64,000 nt of DNA from Prochlorococcus sp. scB243_498I20 (GTDB lineage: Bacteria > Cyanobacteriota > Cyanobacteriia > PCC-6307 > Cyanobiaceae): assembly GCA_000635015.1 (NCBI GenBank), contig JFMR01000114.1:10164-74163 (forward strand), written 5' to 3'. A program made the position numbers and the translations under genes. This document shows positions 41,198-64,000 of this stretch, piece after piece (positions within the stretch are counted from its first letter, which is position 1; each line of letters starts with the position of its first letter). Below the pieces are notes generated by a model. The model had not been told where the DNA came from. It made no database searches and saw only the letters and a program-made list of their open reading frames with translations.

Positions 41198-41286
41198 AAA
41201 TGAACACTTTTTTCTTTAATAAGAATAATTTATTTAAAACGAATAATATTTTTTTTAATTAAAGTTTAATTAAAAGTATATTCATA

Positions 41287-54708: not shown

Positions 54709-55140
54709 TCAAGATACAAATTTAGTATAAAGCCATCTTATAAAAGGTCCTAAAATAGGAACTGGTCCAAAAGTTGGGCCGCAAAAATCAAAGTAATCTC
54801 TGTGCTCTTTTATTAATCCATTTTCACCAAATAATAAACGTGTAGTTCCTGGATAAATAAATTCTTTACCCATAATTTTTAAACCCATTGTCCATTCAAC
54901 AAATCCACAATCACCAGTTATGGAAATTGCATGAGTTTCTAAAAAAACATCATCACATCTCTTAACTAGTTTTTCTTGAGCTTTAATATAAGAATCTAAC
55001 CCCTTTGTTTCTTGAGTTGGGTCTGTAAAAATAACATTCTCATTATAAAATTCAGCCCATTTTTGTTTTGTTGGTGCATCTGTACCATAAGGTTTAGTAA
55101 ATAATCCTTTTAAATCCTCAATAGAAATTACTCTTGTCAT
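54709..55140 (-). CDS. NTF2/SnoaL-like family protein
   Basis: FY.ENV.FTDP, HRDYFD motifs; start at internal ATG. Confidence 0.88.
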   Translation of the reverse strand: MTRVISIEDLKGLFTKPYGTDAPTKQKWAEFYNENVIFTDPTQETKGLDSYIKAQEKLVKRCDDVFLETHAISITGDCGFVEWTMGLKIMGKEFIYPGTTRLLFGENGLIKEHRDYFDFCGPTFGPVPILGPFIRWLYTKFVS

Positions 55141-55184
55141 TACTAAATTGAATTGGAGATATCCTAAAGGATACAAACATGAAA

Positions 55185-55228
55185 AGCGGATGAAGAGATT
55201 CGAACTCTCGACATTCTCCTTGGCAAGG
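55185..55228 (-). repeat. 3' half of tRNA-Gly(GCC) (att junction)
   Basis: Reverse complement CCTTGCCAAGGAGAATGTCGAGAGTTCGAATCTCTTCATCCGCT; no D-arm or 5' acceptor strand upstream. Confidence 0.9.
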
Positions 55229-55299
55229 GGCTACACTTACCCTAAAAAGAAAGTCATACCAACTACTTTACACTATATTATTACTATATATTAACGAAG

Positions 55300-55320
55300 T
55301 AGTGCAGATATTAGTGCAGA
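55300..55320 (+). repeat. Direct repeat TAGTGCAGA x2 (12-bp period), putative arm sites
   Basis: Seen directly, ~70 bp inside the tRNA-Gly junction. Confidence 0.6.
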
Positions 55321-55407
55321 AGCCCAATTTTCGTCTTTATATACTTATCGTAGCTATACCAATCTAACTGGCTAATTTTTTAAGTATATTTAGCGCTACT
55401 AATTAAT

Positions 55408-55433
55408 AAAAAAGGGGGAAGCTCCACACCCCC
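55408..55433 (-). terminator. Putative intrinsic terminator
   Basis: Minus strand GGGGG-tgtggagctt-CCCCC followed by TTTTTT; short stem, long loop. Confidence 0.45.
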
Positions 55434-55546
55434 TATAAGTTAGCAGATTGCAGTAATAGCAACAGTTTTATTATATACTCTATTTATAAATAAGGTTATA
55501 TTAAAAGTGTATAATTTATATTCTTTCCTCTAGCTTAATTTTCTAG

Positions 55547-55888
55547 ATGCGTAAAAGAGCAACTAAACAAGAAATTGAATTAAGAGTTGCACATGCTGCT
55601 GAATTAGTTGCTGAAGGGCAGGCATATTCATCTATTACTTCCCATATTGCCGCAAAATATGGCATCTCAAGAAGAAGAGCCAGGCAGATCACTTCTAATG
55701 CTTATCTTTTGCTGAAAGATGATATTGAAAAAGGGGACTTAAATCGTCCTGAAATGACAGCAAAATTAGTATGTACTTTAGAAAATGCAATGTATAAAGC
55801 AATGCGAGAAAAACAATATTCTGCAGTTGCAAGTAATGCAAAAGTTCTTATGAAATTAATAGGGTTGGAAGCAAAAATAAAAAGTTAG
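55547..55888 (+). CDS. Mobile-element hypothetical protein with HTH (terminase small subunit-like, tentative)
   Basis: Predicted HTH (SHIAAKYGISRRRARQI) and C-terminal YKAM...A.VL.KLIGL helices; stop abuts tRNA-Pro fragment. Confidence 0.7.
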   Translation: MRKRATKQEIELRVAHAAELVAEGQAYSSITSHIAAKYGISRRRARQITSNAYLLLKDDIEKGDLNRPEMTAKLVCTLENAMYKAMREKQYSAVASNAKVLMKLIGLEAKIKS

Positions 55889-55889
55889 A

Positions 55890-55939
55890 GCGGGTGCTTT
55901 GGGAGCACTAGGTCGCAGGTTCGAATCCTGTCGCCCCGA
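55890..55939 (+). repeat. 3' two-thirds of tRNA-Pro(TGG) (att fragment)
   Basis: GCG-GGTGC-TTTGGGA-GCACT-AGGTC-GCAGG-TTCGAAT-CCTGT-CGCCCCGA; 5' acceptor/D-arm absent. Confidence 0.9.
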
Positions 55940-55987
55940 TCAGTTATAGCAATGGATTACAAATATTCGAGTTAGTCTTATATTGAG

Positions 55988-56011
55988 AAAGGAGCGCTAA
56001 AAGGAGCGCTA
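55988..56011 (+). repeat. Perfect 12-bp tandem repeat AAAGGAGCGCTA x2, putative arm sites
   Basis: Seen directly, ~50 bp downstream of tRNA-Pro fragment. Confidence 0.7.
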
Positions 56012-56056
56012 GGGTTATGTACTTTGTATATACTTGTGCCTTACATTTACAGGAAA

Positions 56057-57184
56057 TTATTTATCCCATAGATGAATTGTCAAATCTTTGTTATGAGTCA
56101 ATTCATTAAATTTATCAATTTCAAGATTAGTGTTGTACATAATCATTGGCAATTCCATTTCATGTAATGAGCCATGGGCTCGATAACCTTCATCTAAGGT
56201 TTCATATTCTTCATCTGCTTCTCCAAACATAGTATTTTTATCACCTTCGACAACCAAATCCCCAATATGATGAATACTAGTTTTATATTTATCAGCAATA
56301 TACTTACTATCATAAACTTCATCAACTCCCTCAAGAGATTTTATGATATCTCTAACAGGCTCTTTATCTTCAGGATCCTTTAGCCATATCCAAGAGCACC
56401 CAGTATAGTTTTTGTGATGTTTTATATAGTAATCTCGCTCTGGAGACAATGCGAATAACAAAGGTATACCTCTGTTTTCACAGACTTTGGCTAAATTCCA
56501 ACATCTAGTTTTTTTGTTCATACTATGGTCAGCTGTTAGAAGAATGGCTGCATCTGGAGCACATTCAGTTATCTCTCCAAGTCTTGCATCCATTTTTTGA
56601 AGATGTAACTGTGAGCCTATTTCCTCAGGAGCCCATCTATGCATCGGATAATCAGTTATGTGCACATAAATTAAGTCGATAGATTTATCCTTTTTTAATA
56701 AATAAATTGCTGCATGCCAAAGCCAATCATTAACTTCAGAAGAATAAATATGAGCAGGTTCACCAATAGCTTCAACTAAATCTTTCGGTGGATTTTCTGC
56801 AGTTATTGCGATATCAGCAGAATCTCCAAAAAGCTCAGTTGATTTCTTTTTGGAGCTTAAAACTGCTACCTTTTTGTTACGCTTTTTTCCTTTAATAAAA
56901 ACCGAATCAACCTTTATTAGGTTTTTGTCATTCATGTACTCAGGAGTACCACTTTCGCGATTAAAATAAGAATTTGCAATGATTCCATGATCTTTAGGCC
57001 ATGAACCGGTTGCGATGCCTACATTATTTACGTTCGTGACACTTGGATAACATCCTGATACTTTTTTAAATAACCCTTCTTTAATTAATTTATTCTTTAT
57101 TACGGGTAAATTAGTTCCTTCAAGATATGTTAGACCAAAACCATCTAACATCCCAATGACACATCTTTGATTTTCAACTAGCAT
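56057..57184 (-). CDS. phnA: Phosphonoacetate hydrolase-like enzyme (alkaline phosphatase superfamily)
   Basis: MLDG, PSVTNVNN (Thr nucleophile; PhnA PSFTNPNN), TDYPMH, TADHSM, RAHGSLHE match PhnA ligand motifs; last gene of phn ABC operon. Confidence 0.7.
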   Translation of the reverse strand: MLVENQRCVIGMLDGFGLTYLEGTNLPVIKNKLIKEGLFKKVSGCYPSVTNVNNVGIATGSWPKDHGIIANSYFNRESGTPEYMNDKNLIKVDSVFIKGKKRNKKVAVLSSKKKSTELFGDSADIAITAENPPKDLVEAIGEPAHIYSSEVNDWLWHAAIYLLKKDKSIDLIYVHITDYPMHRWAPEEIGSQLHLQKMDARLGEITECAPDAAILLTADHSMNKKTRCWNLAKVCENRGIPLLFALSPERDYYIKHHKNYTGCSWIWLKDPEDKEPVRDIIKSLEGVDEVYDSKYIADKYKTSIHHIGDLVVEGDKNTMFGEADEEYETLDEGYRAHGSLHEMELPMIMYNTNLEIDKFNELTHNKDLTIHLWDK

Positions 57185-57248
57185 TTAAATTCTGTTTTTT
57201 TTAAGTTATTTTCCTTAGGTTAAATATCATTTAAGTAGAAATTAAGCT

Positions 57249-58049
57249 CTAATTATTAATATATTTGTTCCGAATATTCACACTTAATTGTTCAACAATA
57301 ATTACAAGTATAAAAATTAAAATTAATATTGTGGATGCTTGATCATAATTAAACATTTCCATTGCAACTTTTAATTCAATACCAATTCCTCCTGCTCCAA
57401 CTAATCCTAAAACTACAGATGAACGTACTGCTTTTTCAAGACTAAATAATGAAGTATTAATAAATGAAGGTAAGACTTCAGGGAGTACTGCACAAAAAAT
57501 TATTGCTATTTTTGAAATACCTATTGCCTCCAATGCTTTTTGAGGTTTTTTTTCAATCTCTTCCATGGCTTCTGCAAAGAAACGCCCAGAGAATCCAATA
57601 GTATCAACAATTATGGTGAGGGTCCCAGCTGAGGTACCAAGTCCAATAGTCGCAACAAAGAAAATTGCCCAGATAAGATCTGGAATCGTTCTTAAAAATG
57701 CAATTAAGCCTCTAGAAATTTTATACAATTTTGGAATTGGACTTAGTTCTTTAGCCGCAAATATTGCCAAAGAAAATCCTCCCAATATTCCTACAAATGT
57801 CCCTACAAATGCTATCTGTAAAGTCTCAAGAATCGATTTCAAAAGAGGGAAAATCCTTGAAAAATTTGGAGGTAGCATTTCACTAAGAAGACGAATCATA
57901 TATGGCACACCTTTTAAGAACTCAAGAGGTGATAAACCAACTTGCTTACTAGACCAAATGAAAAACAATAGAACTAAAAGGTATGAGAAATAAACTAAAT
58001 TATTTGTTTTATCCCATCTTGGAGGTAAATCTCTATAATTATTTTTCAT
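57249..58049 (-). CDS. phnE: Phosphonate ABC transporter permease
   Basis: ETLQIA..GT, RTIPDLIWAIFFV..IGLG, EKAVRSSVVLGLVGAGGIG. Confidence 0.93.
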   Translation of the reverse strand: MKNNYRDLPPRWDKTNNLVYFSYLLVLLFFIWSSKQVGLSPLEFLKGVPYMIRLLSEMLPPNFSRIFPLLKSILETLQIAFVGTFVGILGGFSLAIFAAKELSPIPKLYKISRGLIAFLRTIPDLIWAIFFVATIGLGTSAGTLTIIVDTIGFSGRFFAEAMEEIEKKPQKALEAIGISKIAIIFCAVLPEVLPSFINTSLFSLEKAVRSSVVLGLVGAGGIGIELKVAMEMFNYDQASTILILIFILVIIVEQLSVNIRNKYINN

Positions 58050-58051
58050 TT

Positions 58052-58831
58052 TTATGCAGCATAAAATTCATTAACATCAAGTTCATTAAGTTCTTTAGAT
58101 TTAATATTTATTTTGATTACTCCATCTTTCAAACCAATTACTCTATTTGCATAATGTTCAGCATGCTTTAAGTCGTGAGTTGTAAAAAATAGCGTAATTC
58201 CTTGCTTTAAAGTGAGATCTTTTAGAAGGTTCATAACTTCAATTCCAACCTTTGGATCTAGACTTGCGACAGGTTCATCAGCGATCATTAACTTGGGTTT
58301 TTGCATTAGAGCACGCGCTATTGCTACCCTTTGAGATTCCCCTCCAGAAAGTGTATTAACGTTATTCTTTGCAAAATTTTTTAATCCAACTTGATCTAAA
58401 CAATTCAGAGCCCTAGATCTAATTTCAGAGGGAGCAAATGCCTGATACCATAATCTAGGATTTGGGTGGGAATTTAAAGATCCATGAATAACATTACTTA
58501 AAACGCTCAACCTTGGTACTAAATTATGAGTCTGCCAAATAAAAGCAATATCTCGTCTATAAAACTTTAGTAAATTATTATTTTTCATATTCAAGCGTAT
58601 CTGATTAGTATAAATTTCTCCTTTTTCAATATTTGTTAAACCTAAAAGACATTTGATTAAAGTAGATTTTCCACTACCATTTGATCCAATTAGTGCAACT
58701 GATTCTCCATAACTTACATTTAAATTTATTTCTCTTAAAACTTTTTTATTTTTAAAAGATTTACTTAAATTTGTTACTTTTAATATTTCATGAGAATCTC
58801 TTAGAATAGATGATTTTGTAAACTTTTCCAT
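58052..58831 (-). CDS. phnC: Phosphonate ABC transporter ATP-binding protein
   Basis: GSNGSGKST, LSGGESQRVAIARAL, ADEPVASLDP, HNLVPRLSVLSNV. Confidence 0.93.
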   Translation of the reverse strand: MEKFTKSSILRDSHEILKVTNLSKSFKNKKVLREINLNVSYGESVALIGSNGSGKSTLIKCLLGLTNIEKGEIYTNQIRLNMKNNNLLKFYRRDIAFIWQTHNLVPRLSVLSNVIHGSLNSHPNPRLWYQAFAPSEIRSRALNCLDQVGLKNFAKNNVNTLSGGESQRVAIARALMQKPKLMIADEPVASLDPKVGIEVMNLLKDLTLKQGITLFFTTHDLKHAEHYANRVIGLKDGVIKINIKSKELNELDVNEFYAA

Positions 58832-58869
58832 GAGATTCTCTTGAAAAAAATAATAAAGAAATTTCTAAT

Positions 58870-59757
58870 CTACAAAAATTTATTAAATTTATTTACTCCA
58901 ATGGTTTTATACATTGATCGCACGTAATCATAATCGCTATCTTTTGTATTAGGTAAAAATTGCATTCCAGTAAATTTCTTATTATCTTCTCCAAGAAGTA
59001 TTGCACTTATCATTTCATCAGAATTCTTAGACAGAACACTTTTTATTTTATTCACGGATTTTTTATCTAAACCTTTTCTATAAAGCAAAATATCATTAGG
59101 CAAATCTCGACTTCTAGCAATAACTTTAAATGCACCTGGTTGATACTGTTTATCAATTGATCTTAATTTCAAAAACTTATCATTGGTTGTAGCAAATGCA
59201 GCGACATCTCCTCTTTTGAGTGCTTCCCAACCAACTTTAACGCTTGTATGAAAAGGCTTTATATCTCTTAAAGGATCTAGCCCTGCATCTTTCATAACTT
59301 GAAAAGGAGCCAAGTGCTTTGAGGTGGAGCCAACTGATCCCATTGCAACTTTTTTATTCTTAAGATCTTTTACATCTTGTATTGGACCATCAGCCATTAC
59401 GACAATAGAATTAAAATAATCTGGTCTTGAAAACCCTACGAGAGTTTGGGCATCTGTCTTATTTTTAAAAATTACGTATTCTGCAGGGCCTGTTAAAACT
59501 AAATCAATCTTTTTATTTCTCATAGCTTCAACTGCAGCTGTTCTATTCGGAACAGGGTAAAACTTAATATTCAATCCAGTTTTTTCAATCAATTTATCTC
59601 TGAAGGGACCAAACTCAGTTTGCAATTGTTCCATTCCTTCTAGGTCAGTAATTGCGAAATTAATAATTTCTTGTGCAATTGCAGAGACTGACATTGCTGA
59701 AGACGCTAGAATCCCTATAGCAAGGACTTTTGTTTTAGAAAAAAAACTCTTTAACAT
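58870..59757 (-). CDS. phnD: Phosphonate/phosphite-type ABC substrate-binding protein
   Basis: Signal peptide (AIA-QE), GPAEY, DLKNKKVAMGSVGSTS.H, LPND motifs. Confidence 0.88.
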   Translation of the reverse strand: MLKSFFSKTKVLAIGILASSAMSVSAIAQEIINFAITDLEGMEQLQTEFGPFRDKLIEKTGLNIKFYPVPNRTAAVEAMRNKKIDLVLTGPAEYVIFKNKTDAQTLVGFSRPDYFNSIVVMADGPIQDVKDLKNKKVAMGSVGSTSKHLAPFQVMKDAGLDPLRDIKPFHTSVKVGWEALKRGDVAAFATTNDKFLKLRSIDKQYQPGAFKVIARSRDLPNDILLYRKGLDKKSVNKIKSVLSKNSDEMISAILLGEDNKKFTGMQFLPNTKDSDYDYVRSMYKTIGVNKFNKFL

Positions 59758-59825
59758 TTTTTGAGTAGTTGATATCCAAAGAATAAAGAATATTCATCTT
59801 TTAAAGTTATGTTTTTTTTAGAGGG

Positions 59826-59855
59826 AATTTAAAAAAAGTTTAAGTTCAGATTAAT
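59826..59855 (-). promoter_or_regulatory. Putative Pho box (3 repeats) upstream of phnD
   Basis: Minus strand ATTAATCT-gaa-CTTAAACT-ttt-TTTAAATT: TTAA cores at exact 11-bp period. Confidence 0.55.
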
Positions 59856-59887
59856 TTTTAAAAATACAAAAACTTTTTTTTTCATTT

Positions 59888-59906
59888 CTTAATTACTTCT
59901 TAATTC
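59888..59906 (+). promoter_or_regulatory. Putative Pho box (2 repeats) upstream of phnZ
   Basis: CTTAATTA-ctt-CTTAATTC, 11-bp period, ~40 bp before GTG start. Confidence 0.5.
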
Positions 59907-59943
59907 AAATCAATTAATATCACTTCGTTTTTAATGATTTTAA

Positions 59944-60540
59944 GTGAAATACAAAACTATAAAAAATTTCAAAAACAAATTACAAGATTCTGATAACGAT
60001 GAATTTGCTGATTTATTATTTGATTTTATTAAGGAGGAAGGAAAAACTGCTTATGATGAATCTGTCTCTCAATTACAACATGCTCTCCAAACAGCATCAC
60101 TCGCTCGCACTGAAGATGGCAGAAGGCATATAGTAATTGCTTCTTTATTGCATGATATAGGTCATCTTTTTATTGAAGAGAATGACGCAAAAAAAATAAA
60201 AGATCTTAACCATGAAATTATTGCTTCAAATTTTTTAAAAGATTTTTTCTCTGAAAAAATCACGGAAAGTATCCGCTTACACGTTGTCGCAAAAAGATAT
60301 TTATGCTCAATCGATAATTCTTATTATGAGAGATTAGCTAAATCATCTAAAAAAAGCTTTGTGGTTCAAGGTGGAGCTTTAGAAAAAAAAGAGATTATTG
60401 AACTGGAAAATAATATCTACTTTAAAGACGCAATTCAATTAAGGAAATGGGACGATAGAGCCAAGGTTTCTCTAAAAGAAGTTGAAGAATTAGATACTTA
60501 TAAAGAAATGATTGTTGCCGAAAGATTTGCTAATTATTAA
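59944..60540 (+). CDS. phnZ: HD-domain phosphonate oxygenase PhnZ-like
   Basis: Y.E.VSQLQHALQ, LLHDIGH, HE, LHVVAKRYLC, S...QGG, LR.WDD.AK. Confidence 0.88.
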   Translation: MKYKTIKNFKNKLQDSDNDEFADLLFDFIKEEGKTAYDESVSQLQHALQTASLARTEDGRRHIVIASLLHDIGHLFIEENDAKKIKDLNHEIIASNFLKDFFSEKITESIRLHVVAKRYLCSIDNSYYERLAKSSKKSFVVQGGALEKKEIIELENNIYFKDAIQLRKWDDRAKVSLKEVEELDTYKEMIVAERFANY

Positions 60541-60822
60541 AAATATTGTTAATTGCACATTTTATAGATCGAATTTTCCAAAAAACTGTCAAACCTAAGA
60601 CCTAATTAACAGAGAGCACTATGTCGTAGAGAAGAGAGTCAACCGAGACACCCAAAATTCTATTAAAGATATTTTCTATTTCGATCAGAAACACAAATCA
60701 AAAAGGCATCGATTCATGCAGGCGAACCTTGGCTTACTACATCCAAGGCCAGCTTTATTCATTAGTAAAAGTATATATATTTTGAGAGCGTTTGCAACAA
60801 GTATTTCTAAGTCTTTTCTATT

Positions 60823-60842
60823 ACTTACCAACACTTACCAAC
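60823..60842 (+). repeat. Tandem 10-bp repeat ACTTACCAAC x2
   Basis: Seen directly, 12 bp left of site A copy 1. Confidence 0.65.
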
Positions 60843-60854
60843 ACTCATAAAAAA

Positions 60855-60876
60855 GGTGCAAGTAGCAAGCGTTTCA
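60855..60876 (-). repeat. Cassette site A copy 1
   Basis: + strand GGTGCAAGTAGCAAGCGTTTCA; TCA is the TGA stop of ORF 60874-61290. Confidence 0.85.
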
Positions 60877-61290
60877 TCTAGGAAGTATTCTATTTAATTC
60901 GGGATATTCAATTCTTAATTCTTCTATAAATGCATCAACGGTCTTTGATATCTCGTCAGTAGTATTCAAAATAGAATTTTTATATTTTAGATATTCGGAA
61001 ACTTGAAATAATTTCATAGTTGATTTTGTTAAAAGTAATGTTGCAAGAGGAGATTTATCTGCCAATTTAGTTGAAGGAAAATATTTTATAGTTTCAGGAT
61101 AAGTTTTTTCCATATCCTCAATATAGTCTTCTATCTTTTCATTTAATTCATCATATTTTGATGATAAAAACTTTTTGGTATTTAAATATTCAAAACCTGC
61201 GAATAAAAAACCAATAGGAAAACTTAAAAATAATATTGAAAGAGAAAGCCTAAGAAGATTTTGGGAAAATTTTTCCATAGAAATAATCAA
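60874..61290 (-). CDS. Hypothetical membrane-anchored protein (cassette ORF)
   Basis: One N-terminal TM helix, acidic helical domain. Confidence 0.7.
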   Translation of the reverse strand: MIISMEKFSQNLLRLSLSILFLSFPIGFLFAGFEYLNTKKFLSSKYDELNEKIEDYIEDMEKTYPETIKYFPSTKLADKSPLATLLLTKSTMKLFQVSEYLKYKNSILNTTDEISKTVDAFIEELRIEYPELNRILPR

Positions 61291-61394
61291 TTAAATTTAT
61301 TTAAAACATATCAAGGTTAAAAGTAAGTAAAGCATGTAATATTTTTGCTTTCTTCTTCCGATCTACTGAAATATTTAATTTTTATAATTTCTAT

Positions 61395-61408
61395 ATCGAC
61401 TGTCAATC
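61395..61408 (-). repeat. Cassette site B partial copy
   Basis: ATCGACTGTCAATC identical to part of 63048-63091. Confidence 0.75.
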
Positions 61409-61418
61409 GTATTTAATA

Positions 61419-61444
61419 TAGCGGTGCAATTAGTAAGCGTTTCA
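61419..61444 (-). repeat. Cassette site A copy 2
   Basis: + strand TAGCGGTGCAATTAGTAAGCGTTTCA; TCA is the TGA stop of ORF 61442-61837. Confidence 0.85.
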
Positions 61445-61837
61445 ATTTTTATTGTTAACTAATCCATAGATACATAAAAGAGGATTCACTATCAAAACAA
61501 TCCAGAAAGGAGGAGGGGGTCCTCCATCAACAATTGTCCCAGCGTTAAAAGTATTAAATAGAGCTACTGCCAAAAAACAAAACATCAAAGCTAATTCACC
61601 TGATAAAACTTTTCTTAAGGAGGCTTTATCTTTAATGGAACTACAAATAATCAATAAAAAACCTATTCCTAAATTACTAGCAGCTACAACATCTGCAGTA
61701 CCTCTAACAAGAAGCAATGTTTCACTTGAAGCGTTGCCTGCAATAGTTTCCACTGAAAAAATTAGTAGAGAAATAATTAACAACCCCAACAGGATATGAA
61801 GCGCTCCAGTAGTTTTTAAAATATTTTTTAACTTCAT
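61442..61837 (-). CDS. Hypothetical integral membrane protein, ~4 TM (cassette ORF)
   Basis: Four hydrophobic segments; GGPPPPFW motif. Confidence 0.8.
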   Translation of the reverse strand: MKLKNILKTTGALHILLGLLIISLLIFSVETIAGNASSETLLLVRGTADVVAASNLGIGFLLIICSSIKDKASLRKVLSGELALMFCFLAVALFNTFNAGTIVDGGPPPPFWIVLIVNPLLCIYGLVNNKN

Positions 61838-61882
61838 AAAAAAAGGAGCTTATTTCCCCCTTATTGTAGATCGACTGTCAAT
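61838..61882 (-). repeat. Cassette site B full copy
   Basis: AAAAAAAGGAGCTTATTTCCCCCTTATTGTAGATCGACTGTCAAT directly abutting the ATG. Confidence 0.88.
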
Positions 61883-61886
61883 TTAG

Positions 61887-61901
61887 AGTAGTAAGCGTTT
61901 C
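61887..61901 (-). repeat. Cassette site A copy 3 (truncated)
   Basis: AGTAGTAAGCGTTTC, 4 bp from site B. Confidence 0.8.
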
Positions 61902-62111
61902 GTTTAAAACAAAGTTCTAGTTTTTTCGTTTTTTTTCATTAACCTTCCACATTTTCTTGAACATATAATTTTTATGTTCATTGCAATACATTTAGCAGAA
62001 GTAATAATGCGTAAGTGTATATTAACTATACAGAATCCGTTCCAAAATTCTGTAGGTTTAAGGTCTTCCCTATCTTTCAACTCCTATTAATAGTTGAAAA
62101 TAAAAACCTAT

Positions 62112-62294
62112 TTACCACCACATACCGAGATTCAATTTTTTTGCATCTCTATTACATGCAAGCTCACACTCGTTTAACTCTTTGACTGAGAGAGCCTCAA
62201 GTATTCTTGCCATATCAATAGAAGATAGTTCTCCATTAACGTTCCACTTAAGTGTAGTTTTACGTTGAGGTGTGTTTTTTGTTTTTTTCATCAT
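62112..62294 (-). CDS. Small hypothetical protein
   Basis: 60-aa ORF, TLKWN..GELS.IDM.RIL...C.L.C pattern looks protein-like. Confidence 0.6.
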   Translation of the reverse strand: MMKKTKNTPQRKTTLKWNVNGELSSIDMARILEALSVKELNECELACNRDAKKLNLGMWW

Positions 62295-62442
62295 GACTTT
62301 TTAAGGTCGGGATAATTAAATAGCATGATTATTTAAAATTCTCAAATATTTATTGAGTAAAAGAGTATAAATTACCAAAAAAATGTGAAGTTTTTATAAG
62401 TTAAAGAATTAAATTTATTTATCAAGAATCTAGAAATTCAAT

Positions 62443-62468
62443 TAGCCGTGCAAGTAGTAAGCGTTTCA
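62443..62468 (-). repeat. Cassette site A copy 4
   Basis: TAGCCGTGCAAGTAGTAAGCGTTTCA immediately after the TAA at 62469-62471. Confidence 0.85.
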
Positions 62469-63047
62469 TTAAGGAAGATACTTATTCCTATTTATTGGTT
62501 CATTTTGGAGGATTCTCATGGCTTCTGGTGAGTTAGTAACTCCTATTATTGCGACCAAAATAACACCTAGTGCTAACAAGGCATATGCTCTCTGTTTATT
62601 TGCTTTTACCTTTCTAATACTTTCTTCTTCATAAACTTTCTTAAAATGAGCTTCCCATTTTTCAACAAAAGTAGGTTCAACTAACTTTTCATCAATTTCT
62701 TTATTTTTTGCCTCCGCTTCGCCATTAAATTTATTTTTAAATTCTGGGAAATCATTATGGCTTAAAGCCCATTATTTCCACGATGTCCATTCTTGTAATT
62801 GTGTTTGTTTTGCTTGACCTTGAATTAAAAAAGCGTCTCCGCCAACATCAGCACCTGCCATACCCGTAATTGCTCCAGCTATGGCTCCATCACGCCTGCT
62901 TGTATTTTTAGGAGGCCTTGCTTCTACATCATGTAATTTTAAAAATTCAACAACTATTACATCTAAACCAACTAAGGGAACTTTTTTTAATTCAGGATTA
63001 TCTCTGTAAATTCTGGTTAATTCAGATTGTTTCCATTCTTTAGTCAT
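62469..63047 (-). pseudogene. Hypothetical protein with in-frame premature stop (cassette ORF)
   Basis: Frame reads ...EWTSWK-TAA(62772-62774)-WALSHNDFPEF... and stays open for 100 more codons incl. a TM helix to TAA 62469. Confidence 0.75.
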
Positions 63048-63090
63048 AAAAAAGAAGCTAATTGCCCCTTATTGTAGATCGACTGTCAAT
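63048..63090 (-). repeat. Cassette site B full copy
   Basis: AAAAAAGAAGCTAATTGCCCCTTATTGTAGATCGACTGTCAAT; 26-bp core identical to 61857-61882; 6 bp from integrase stop, abuts ATG. Confidence 0.88.
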
Positions 63091-63096
63091 CTTAAA

Positions 63097-64000
63097 TTAG
63101 ACACCTACTTCAAAGGCATTTTTTTGATGTCTAGCAACAGCAGCTTCGATAGATGCTTCACTAGTCCAACGGCCGTAAAAATTTAAATGTGTTGCGGGTG
63201 TATGACCCATTGCTTCGGCGGCATCTCGAATTGAGATTGGATTATCACTAGCTTTGTGAGCTATCCAAGCCCATCTATGACGAAGGGAATATGGCGTTAA
63301 TCCTTTAGTCTTTTTAGCTATCTGTTTCCAAATAATTGTTCTATTTAATTGTTGGGTTAATGTTGCACCAACATCAGCAAATCTTCTCTTTTTCTGAACC
63401 ATCTTAATTTGATTTTCGATCGCTTCTGGAAGTCCAACTAAACCGCTTTTATATTGTGCTACAAGCTCATTTCCTAGCCCTTCTCTGCCCAATATATCTA
63501 GTGCAAATACTCTACGAGGTGGATTCTTTTTGCCCTTATTCTGGACGTTTTTCTTGATACTTCCGACAAATAATTTATTACCATCTCTTACTTCAAGAGT
63601 GGCTAATTCTGAAAGTCTTAATCCATGCAATGCGATCAATCCGACCGCTAAATATAACTTAGGATTTGTCGCTTTTAGTGTGTCTAATAATATTGCTAAA
63701 TCAGCGTCAGATATTGGTGGAGTTACTGTATCTTCTGTAGTTCTAGTATTATCTCCGACCAGTTCTTTAGCTAAGTCTTTATGGGGTGGAAACCATCTTT
63801 CACTCATACCGTGGCGGTTGACTCCATATTCAAGAATTTTATAAACGGAATCTAAATATCTTTTTCTAGAATCTGAACCCGATGGAATATCATCAAAGAA
63901 ATTTTTAGCGTATTTTTTGACAAAATCTTCTCCCGAAGTTGGTGTAGGTTTTTTATTCATTACTTCTCTAAATCGATCAACTCTTCTAGTCCACTCCATA
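63097..64000 (-). CDS. Tyrosine recombinase/integrase (5' end outside window)
   Basis: HGLRLSEL (Arg), PYSLRH, AMGH, FY catalytic tyrosine near C-terminus. Confidence 0.92.
   Translation of the reverse strand, partial: MEWTRRVDRFREVMNKKPTPTSGEDFVKKYAKNFFDDIPSGSDSRKRYLDSVYKILEYGVNRHGMSERWFPPHKDLAKELVGDNTRTTEDTVTPPISDADLAILLDTLKATNPKLYLAVGLIALHGLRLSELATLEVRDGNKLFVGSIKKNVQNKGKKNPPRRVFALDILGREGLGNELVAQYKSGLVGLPEAIENQIKMVQKKRRFADVGATLTQQLNRTIIWKQIAKKTKGLTPYSLRHRWAWIAHKASDNPISIRDAAEAMGHTPATHLNFYGRWTSEASIEAAVARHQKNAFEVGV

Follow-up and report, generated by a model that had tools for sequence, protein, structure and literature searches.

A likely phosphorus-scavenging cassette with a PhnA-like hydrolase and PhnZ in a tycheposon-type element of Prochlorococcus

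The DNA analysed here, called the window throughout, is a 64,000-nucleotide (nt) stretch of contig C114 (JFMR01000114.1; C114:10164-74163) from the assembly of Prochlorococcus sp. scB243_498I20, a high-light genome of 1.59 Mb that is 95% complete. Near the right-hand end of the window lie five phosphonate-type genes. Four are on the minus strand: phnD, for a periplasmic binding protein (58870-59757), phnC, for an ABC ATPase (58052-58831), phnE, for an ABC permease (57249-58049), and a PhnA-like gene (56057-57184), whose open reading frame (ORF) of 375 amino acids was confirmed. They are separated by gaps of 38 nt (phnD-phnC), 2 nt (phnC-phnE) and 64 nt (phnE and the PhnA-like gene). The fifth, phnZ, encodes an HD-domain di-iron oxygenase of 198 amino acids from a GTG start on the plus strand (59944-60540) and diverges from phnD across a spacer of 186 nt (59758-59943). 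The initial annotation, made from the letters of the window, had described this divergent operon with its 186-bp spacer, and all five ORFs lie where it had placed them. The genes form a cassette of ~4.7 kb (55890-60631), which is cargo inside a 9.3-kb element. We consider it likely that the region is a phosphorus-scavenging cargo cassette in a tycheposon-type element, with the mechanism and history described below.

NCBIfam and Pfam concur on the identities of the transporter and of PhnZ. All three subunits of a PhnCDE importer are present and match their family models, with PhnC and PhnD slightly below cut-off: PhnE scored 269 bits on TIGR01097 (cut-off 216.7), PhnC 251.7 bits on TIGR02315, its best family (cut-off 266.1), and PhnD 126 bits on PF12974 and 110 bits on TIGR01098 (cut-off 112.05). 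On the last model, the PhnD of a related version of the cassette that lacks phnZ (variant B) scored 122 bits. The structures closest to the cassette PhnD are those of P. aeruginosa PhnD, P. stutzeri PtxB and E. coli PhnD (E 1e-13 to 1e-15). The PhnD N-terminus, MLKSFFSKTKVLAIGILASSAMSVSAIAQE, forms a signal peptide, which the PhnA-like protein lacks. At least six independent copies have all five genes intact, and the ratio of nonsynonymous to synonymous substitution (dN/dS) is 0.04-0.2 at informative divergence, with values of 0.08 for phnE against variant B, 0.13 for phnC and ~0.10 for the PhnA-like gene. The cassette genes therefore appear to be under purifying selection and selectively maintained, and because the ORFs are intact and the dN/dS values low, we rejected the possibility of chance ORFs or pseudogenes. 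The phosphonate genes that had been listed as absent from the window are indeed absent, and tblastn found no PhnY*, PtxD, HpnX or HpnW there.

The PhnA-like protein is predicted to be a cytoplasmic hydrolase of the alkaline phosphatase superfamily that belongs to an uncharacterised clade, here clade A. PF01663 (Type I phosphodiesterase/NPP) is the only Pfam family above cut-off, and the sequence similarity to NPPs is limited to the first ~100 residues. A phmmer comparison with the PhnA structures 3szy and 1ei6 gave E ~1e-31. An AlphaFold2 model of the protein (mean predicted local distance difference test score 94.4) aligned in Foldseek with PhnA at template modelling (TM) scores of 0.85-0.87 and with NPPs at 0.62-0.69. 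Residues D14, T50, K112, K114, D178, H182, D219, H220 and H337 do not vary among 25 family members; T50 corresponds to the nucleophile Thr64 of PhnA and K112/K114 to its Lys126/Lys128, and the metal ligands also align. The protein thus shares with phosphonoacetate hydrolase (PhnA, EC 3.11.1.2; P. fluorescens 23F, 1EI6, and S. meliloti, 3SZY) the fold, a PS-x-TN-x-NN motif that holds the nucleophilic Thr, the ligands for two metals and both lysines of Lys-x-Lys. In contrast, it is only 24-30% identical to PhnA and ~30-50 residues shorter. According to a review citing Kim 2011, the two lysines of PhnA stabilise the aci-carboxylate leaving group (PMC10574752). Nearly all of the ~70 superfamily representatives compared keep the catalytic residues; therefore, the Lys-x-Lys pair and the rest of the active-site set mark PhnA-type chemistry and not substrate, and we dropped the pair as a substrate discriminator. 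Clade A has a basic residue between the lysines (KKK or KRK), and true PhnA mostly an acidic one (KDK or KEK).

Gene context also separates the two. PhnA has phnW, phnY and a LysR or GntR regulator as its neighbours (PMC3266647), whereas the neighbours of PhnA-like genes are phnDCE or Pst-like importers; in the cassette they are phnDCE and phnZ, and neither phnW, phnY nor a LysR/GntR gene adjoins. True phnA was reported to be mainly limited to Proteobacteria (PMC3266647). We surveyed the context of clade-A genes at 41 non-Prochlorococcus loci with enough upstream flank. A cognate phnD-phnC-phnE set lies directly upstream in 14 of the 41, including all nine of the highest-scoring loci. The four highest-scoring also carry, between or after phnE and the PhnA-like gene, a gene for a small TehB-like S-adenosylmethionine methyltransferase (L001:7241-7978, L003:7296-7967, L005:9124-9780 and L008:9123-9776). 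We compared this enzyme with the phosphonate O-methyltransferase DhpI, but its PDB and NCBIfam matches were generic TehB-like class I enzymes. Thirteen of the 41 loci hold a tandem clade-A paralog, and both of the tandem loci that were checked (2/13) follow PstS-family, PstC, PstA and PstB-like genes (L029:2424-8131 and L035:3223-7985). This arrangement suggests that the clade-A substrate may pass through importers of both the phosphate and the phosphonate type. No phnZ was present at any of the 41 loci.

The transporter of the cassette points to the same relatives. Its PhnD matches the binding proteins encoded beside clade-A genes in other phyla at 216-405 bits, whereas its matches to the PhnD2 and PtxB of its own genome reach only 32-37 bits. 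The three transporter genes and the PhnA-like gene therefore appear to share one history, and they were probably acquired as a unit. This four-gene unit, common to distant phyla and to variant B, would be the ancestral one. Mobile, PhnDCE-centred accessory cassettes are known from marine heterotrophs: phnCDE-ubiE (phnCDE-methyltransferase) operons occur in SAR11 and HIMB59 (PMC12416821), and fGIphn-A combines phnDCE with a methyltransferase (PMC10734472). Both were found in low-phosphate waters (PMC12416821, PMC10734472). The Prochlorococcus cassette is, like them, mobile and centred on PhnDCE but has no methyltransferase, unlike the four closest non-Prochlorococcus clade-A loci.

By comparison, phnZ appears to have a source closer to home. 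It is 88% identical in nucleotide and 86% in amino acid sequence to a second, native phnZ on contig C45 of the same genome, with homology running from 4-5 nt before the start codon to ~10 nt after the stop. The ATGA at the native start is GTGA in the cassette, which also has a 9-nt (three-codon) deletion, and each of the five phnZ copies of the phnZ-bearing cassette (variant A) retains the GTG start. From these features, phnZ appears to be a later addition that was copied from the native phnY*-phnZ operon, which would make the five genes a recent mosaic. The encoded protein scored 187.1 bits on TIGR03276 (cut-off 214.6) and 184 bits on NF052439, hydroxymethylphosphonate dioxygenase (cut-off 300), below both thresholds. 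The native C45 PhnZ is likewise below them (193.6 and 213.1 bits, respectively), and therefore these cut-offs exclude this PhnZ lineage as a whole. Residues H46, H70, D71, H90, H113 and D170, together with H74, align with the PhnZ ligand set and catalytic His, which we take to be H34, H58, D59, H80, H104 and D161 for the irons and His62 for catalysis in PDB 4MLM; E39 is also present. Values of dN/dS were 0.04-0.12 among the cassette copies of phnZ and 0.22 against the native gene.

There are three PhnZ-like lineages in the genus, a native type in ~20 genomes, the cassette type in 3 and an HpnZ-like type in ~25. In genomes G252 (89% complete) and G039 (67% complete), the cassette phnZ is present and neither phnY* nor a native phnZ was detected; therefore, the cassette gene would not be redundant there. 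No phnY* lies next to phnZ in the window, and the one found is on C45. Prochlorococcus MIT9301 grows on methylphosphonate and on hydroxymethylphosphonate, the latter a component of marine dissolved organic matter (Sosa 2019; PMC6581173), so a PhnZ that has an importer and works without PhnY* has a plausible natural substrate. With the MIT9301-type ptxABCD-phnY*-phnZ cluster, the cassette shares a PhnZ that is 86% identical to the PhnZ type of that cluster and has all the ligands. It differs from the cluster in lacking phnY* and ptxD, in its promoter and in the unrelated PhnD-type transporter next door.

The element that carries the cassette is framed by two copies of tRNA-Gly(GCC). The intact gene (C114:74676-74747, equivalent to window positions 64513-64584) lies just beyond the window end, and a partial copy of 44 nt with 100% identity to it, the distal attachment (att) repeat, is at 55185-55228 on the minus strand. 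They are part of a direct repeat of 54 nt (family D1; left copy 55185-55237) with a spacing of 9328 bp. A tyrosine recombinase (integrase) gene of 445 codons starts at 63097 on the minus strand and runs to 64434, past the window end; its product matches PF00589 and, at E 3e-14, phrog_1 and phrog_216. The full integrase ORF is L009:9097-10434, and the intact tRNA-Gly is 78 nt beyond it. Outside the repeats are core genes, with secA, GNAT and SnoaL genes on one side and ribH, mutS, cobH, holA, lysC and uvrB on the other. The cassette itself begins on its left with a 50-nt 3' fragment of tRNA-Pro(TGG) (55890-55939, plus strand), which matches positions 25-74 of the tRNA-Pro(tgg) in this genome at 100% identity and appears to be a relic of an earlier integration site.

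As part of the best explanation, we read the 9.3-kb element as a tycheposon-type integrative element at tRNA-Gly(GCC). Like tycheposons, it has a tyrosine recombinase adjoining an intact tRNA, a partial tRNA copy at the far end and nutrient-acquisition cargo, which recurs at several tRNA islands. In the preprint by Hackl et al., Prochlorococcus tycheposons are described as carrying nutrient cargo that includes phosphorus-acquisition genes, and many of them, not all, as carrying a replication module (bioRxiv 10.1101/2020.12.28.424599). Unlike many tycheposons, the 9.3-kb element has no recognised primase, helicase or replication module, and its nested tRNA-Pro fragment and its array of small repeat-bounded ORFs also set it apart from those described. 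The preprint describes cargo for phosphite and phosphate but not the present cassette (bioRxiv 10.1101/2020.12.28.424599).

Between the att repeat and the cassette, a plus-strand gene (55547-55888) encodes a 113-amino-acid helix-turn-helix protein with a weak Sigma70_r4 match and, at E 1.4e-7, similarity to phrog_34910, possibly a regulator or excision helper of the element. It accompanies the cassette at locus L104, where homology to the window runs from 60546 down to 55547, but not at L006. To the right of the cassette, from 60855 to 63096, small, unrelated, co-oriented ORFs (138, 131, 60 and 91 amino acids) are separated by two repeated motifs, family D3 with three copies and family D4 with two 43-nt copies, one of them immediately after the integrase stop. 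D4-like repeat copies also occur at L006 and L104. The small ORFs of the element had no Pfam or PHROG matches, and an Rfam scan of 54900-64000 found no match.

The cassette recurs well beyond this genome. The stretch 55890-60631 is found at 95-99% identity, with different flanks, in the single-amplified genomes (SAGs) scB245a_519A13 (L006) and AG-915-K06 (L007), on two metagenome contigs (L012 and L013) and on a 622-kb contig (L104). At L104 the cassette lies between a tRNA-Thr(GGT) and a partial tRNA-Thr, and in AG-915-K06 it adjoins an HpnWX-type cluster. Variant B is ~90.5% identical to the window cassette, with which it shares homology only as far as position 59918. One copy (L099) is bounded on both sides by the tRNA-Pro fragment that borders the window cassette. 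Another (L098) is in a tRNA-Pro island in which that fragment occurs six times next to an intact tRNA-Pro, and it stands directly upstream of phoB-phoR-pstS-chrA-MFS-gap-arsR. In the collection, 165 sample blocks contain one and the same variant-B protein sequence, and therefore the cassette is not confined to one cell. The variant-A cluster has 98 member sequences, and variant B, without phnZ, is the commoner of the two. The initial annotation had proposed that the module is mobile; this is borne out by the tRNA-Gly att repeats, the adjacent integrase and the presence of the cassette at three different tRNA islands.

Within the genus, the full PhnA-like gene is rare, being present in 3 of 285 species-representative Prochlorococcus genomes, and C-terminal remnants were seen in 2 more. 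These (G121:C35:772-981, locus L096, and G133:C1:120745-120954, locus L095) cover the last 70 codons of the PhnA-like gene at 89% identity, each with a stop codon, and look like what is left of lost cassettes. In a survey of 400 other cyanobacterial genomes (155 genera), none had the PhnA-like family at E 1e-60, and no cyanobacterial donor was identified.

The host has further phosphonate genes elsewhere. At C45:271725-280686 (L010, L011), phnD (332 amino acids)-phnC-phnE-phnE (phnC2D2E2E3), ptxABCD, a GNAT gene, phnY* and phnZ are clustered, and the ptxABCD-phnY*-phnZ part is a copy of the MIT9301-type cluster; the best family for phnY* is methylphosphonate hydroxylase and that for phnZ is hydroxymethylphosphonate dioxygenase. 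Strain RS01 is the only other known case of phnC2D2E2E3 together with ptxABDC-phnYZ (PMC10119275). Also on C45, at 260057-264069 (L010:2058-6070), is an HpnWXZ-type cluster with an ABC permease, a PhnX-like hydrolase (TIGR03351, 152 bits), an FAD oxidoreductase above cut-off (TIGR03364, 420 bits) and an HpnZ-like HD gene broken by a TAA stop. No PhnJ was found anywhere in the genome. The initial annotation had regarded the module as a minimal scavenging kit for partly processed phosphonates. A role of PhnZ on hydroxymethylphosphonate is plausible, but with PhnY*, PtxD and HpnWX encoded elsewhere, the host cannot be called minimally equipped.

The divergent spacer contains a candidate Pho box, CTTAATTA ctt CTTAATTC aaa TCAATTAA (59888-59917, plus strand), which is conserved in all variants and is kept in the phnZ-less one, where homology ends at 59918. 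Su et al. reportedly defined the cyanobacterial Pho box in 2007 as PyTTAAPyPy(T/A) repeats with 3-nt linkers, a pattern that the candidate fits. Elsewhere in the window, at 41254-41274, there is a palindromic, zero-mismatch double Pho-box match, TTTAATTAAAGTTTAATTA, on both strands. Because variant B stands directly upstream of phoB-phoR-pstS, a role under phosphate stress gains independent support, and phosphorus scavenging under phosphate starvation is the most likely function of the cassette.

We suggest that, under phosphate stress, the 186-bp control region with its Pho-box-like repeat would drive two divergent transcripts. The leftward one would encode the binding protein, ATPase and permease of an importer for a small phosphonate-type anion, along with the cytoplasmic PhnA-like enzyme, which, with two metals, Thr50 and Lys112/Lys114, would hydrolyse the imported anion and release phosphate. 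Our best guess at its substrate would be phosphonoacetate or some similar phosphonate whose leaving group is of the carboxyl type. The rightward transcript would provide PhnZ for the oxidative cleavage of alpha-hydroxyphosphonates such as hydroxymethylphosphonate or (R)-1-hydroxy-2-aminoethylphosphonate, which could be imported directly or, in this genome, be made from methylphosphonate by the C45 PhnY*.

Several observations weigh against this reading, most of them concerning the PhnA-like protein. It scored 145.3 bits on TIGR02335 against a cut-off of 407.55, and clade-A relatives, which are 45-57% identical to it, scored 158-177 bits (P0005, P0011, P0026 and the L029 paralog). In a maximum-likelihood tree of 68 superfamily members with a midpoint split, 1ei6 and 3szy fall in a 27-row PhnA clade (Shimodaira-Hasegawa-like approximate likelihood ratio test (SH-aLRT) support 100, stem 0.61), and the cassette protein falls in the separate nine-row clade A (SH-aLRT 96), among shorter homologues, on the opposite side of the midpoint. 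Since the TIGR02335 cut-off is missed and the true PhnA clade does not include the protein, the PhnA label is not established, and the protein is not, as far as these comparisons go, an established phosphonoacetate hydrolase. What stands of the hydrolytic and oxidative pairing proposed in the initial annotation is therefore a PhnA-superfamily hydrolase beside a PhnZ oxygenase, and not the phosphonoacetate hydrolase identity. The Lys-x-Lys pair, kept across nearly the whole superfamily, gives no substrate identity. The genome appears to have no phnW or phnY dehydrogenase with which to make phosphonoacetate internally; neither was found above cut-off genome-wide, and the best phnW-like and phnY-dehydrogenase-like matches are on other contigs. 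The Pst-like importers joined to some clade-A relatives may point to a substrate nearer to phosphate than to phosphonoacetate. As for expression, the Pho-box pattern has 8 matches in the window where 4.4 are expected, which is not significant in AT-rich DNA, so its significance was not upheld and the box remains only a conserved candidate; the GTG start of phnZ is only ~9 nt downstream of the nearest -10-like sequence. Finally, no ORF between 55185 and 64434 belongs to a replication module (primase, helicase or polymerase).

Some of these points would also suit other substrates. If the PhnA-like protein were an NPP-type phosphodiesterase, or a phosphonate-monoester or other P-O hydrolase of an imported ester, PhnZ would be the sole C-P cleaver of the cassette. 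Such an enzyme would account for PF01663 as the only Pfam family above cut-off and for the low TIGR02335 score (145 vs 407), and the position of the protein outside the true PhnA clade and the Pst-like operons joined to its relatives would fit as well. We nevertheless think it rather unlikely, given a fold that matches PhnA at TM 0.87 and any NPP at no more than 0.69, an invariant Lys pair, an NPP similarity confined to the first ~100 residues and a cytoplasmic location coupled to a PhnD-type importer. A different proposal is that clade A acts on some other small phosphorus anion, which could be phosphonoformate-like, phosphite (P-H), thiophosphate or phosphoramidate, and not on phosphonoacetate, which would make the cassette an unrecognised route for compounds of that kind. 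The pairing of clade A with either PhnDCE-type or Pst-like importers, depending on the lineage, the basic inter-lysine residue where true PhnA has mostly an acidic one, and the absence of a phosphonoacetate-making pathway all speak for it. By Yang and Metcalf's account of 2004, E. coli alkaline phosphatase is said to hydrolyse phosphite and other P-X anions, which we also counted in its favour. The active-site residues are, however, the same as those of PhnA, and phosphite is already covered by ptxABCD in this genome, so we regard the proposal as doubtful.

A further explanation concerns phnZ, which could be a redundant or decaying hitch-hiker from recombination with phnY*Z, in which case only phnDCE and the PhnA-like gene would matter. 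Homology that starts exactly at the start codon, the GTG start and the lack of phnY* could be read in this way, as could the greater abundance of variant B, which lacks phnZ, and the absence of phnZ from all 41 non-Prochlorococcus clade-A loci. However, the ORF is intact with all its ligands, the GTG is conserved in five copies, dN/dS is as low as 0.04-0.12 among the copies and 0.22 against the native gene, and G252 and G039 have the cassette phnZ without phnY* or a native phnZ. We therefore consider decay or redundancy very unlikely.

The catalogued picocyanobacterial systems are phnD1C1E1, phnC2D2E2E3 and ptxABDC-phnYZ (PMC10119275), along with PhnD1, PhnD2 and a lone PhnD3, that of strain MIT9314 (PMC10284923); the configuration is not among them, in line with the initial annotation, which did not recognise it as described for picocyanobacteria. 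We found no description of the cassette in the literature searched, which lacks most subscription journals. Published surveys would miss it, because one applied trusted HMM cut-offs and made the joint presence of phnW, phnA and phnY a condition (bioRxiv 10.1101/2020.11.04.368217) and another required matches to both PhnY and PhnZ (PMC6581173).

Prochlorococcus is the most abundant phototroph of the ocean, and in large regions phosphorus limits it. It is known to obtain reduced phosphorus by way of ptxABCD (phosphite) and phnY*Z (methylphosphonate), and the cassette would add a third, hydrolytic-type enzyme with an importer of its own. Its history would also illustrate modular assembly by tRNA-targeted elements, in which four genes imported as a unit were joined to a fifth, copied from a native operon, under a shared promoter, and reached at least three tRNA islands. 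Clade A is tied to phosphorus importers in many phyla, and knowing its substrate would give the Pho regulon a newly defined entry. We raise, tentatively, the possibility that clade A consists of widespread, transporter-coupled cytoplasmic hydrolases for an unrecognised small phosphorus compound, and not of phosphonoacetate hydrolases, and that it gives wild Prochlorococcus a new phosphorus source. If this were true, Prochlorococcus in phosphate-poor oceans would draw on an undescribed source of phosphorus, through a cassette that sits beside phoBR and a mobile derivative that has gained phnZ.

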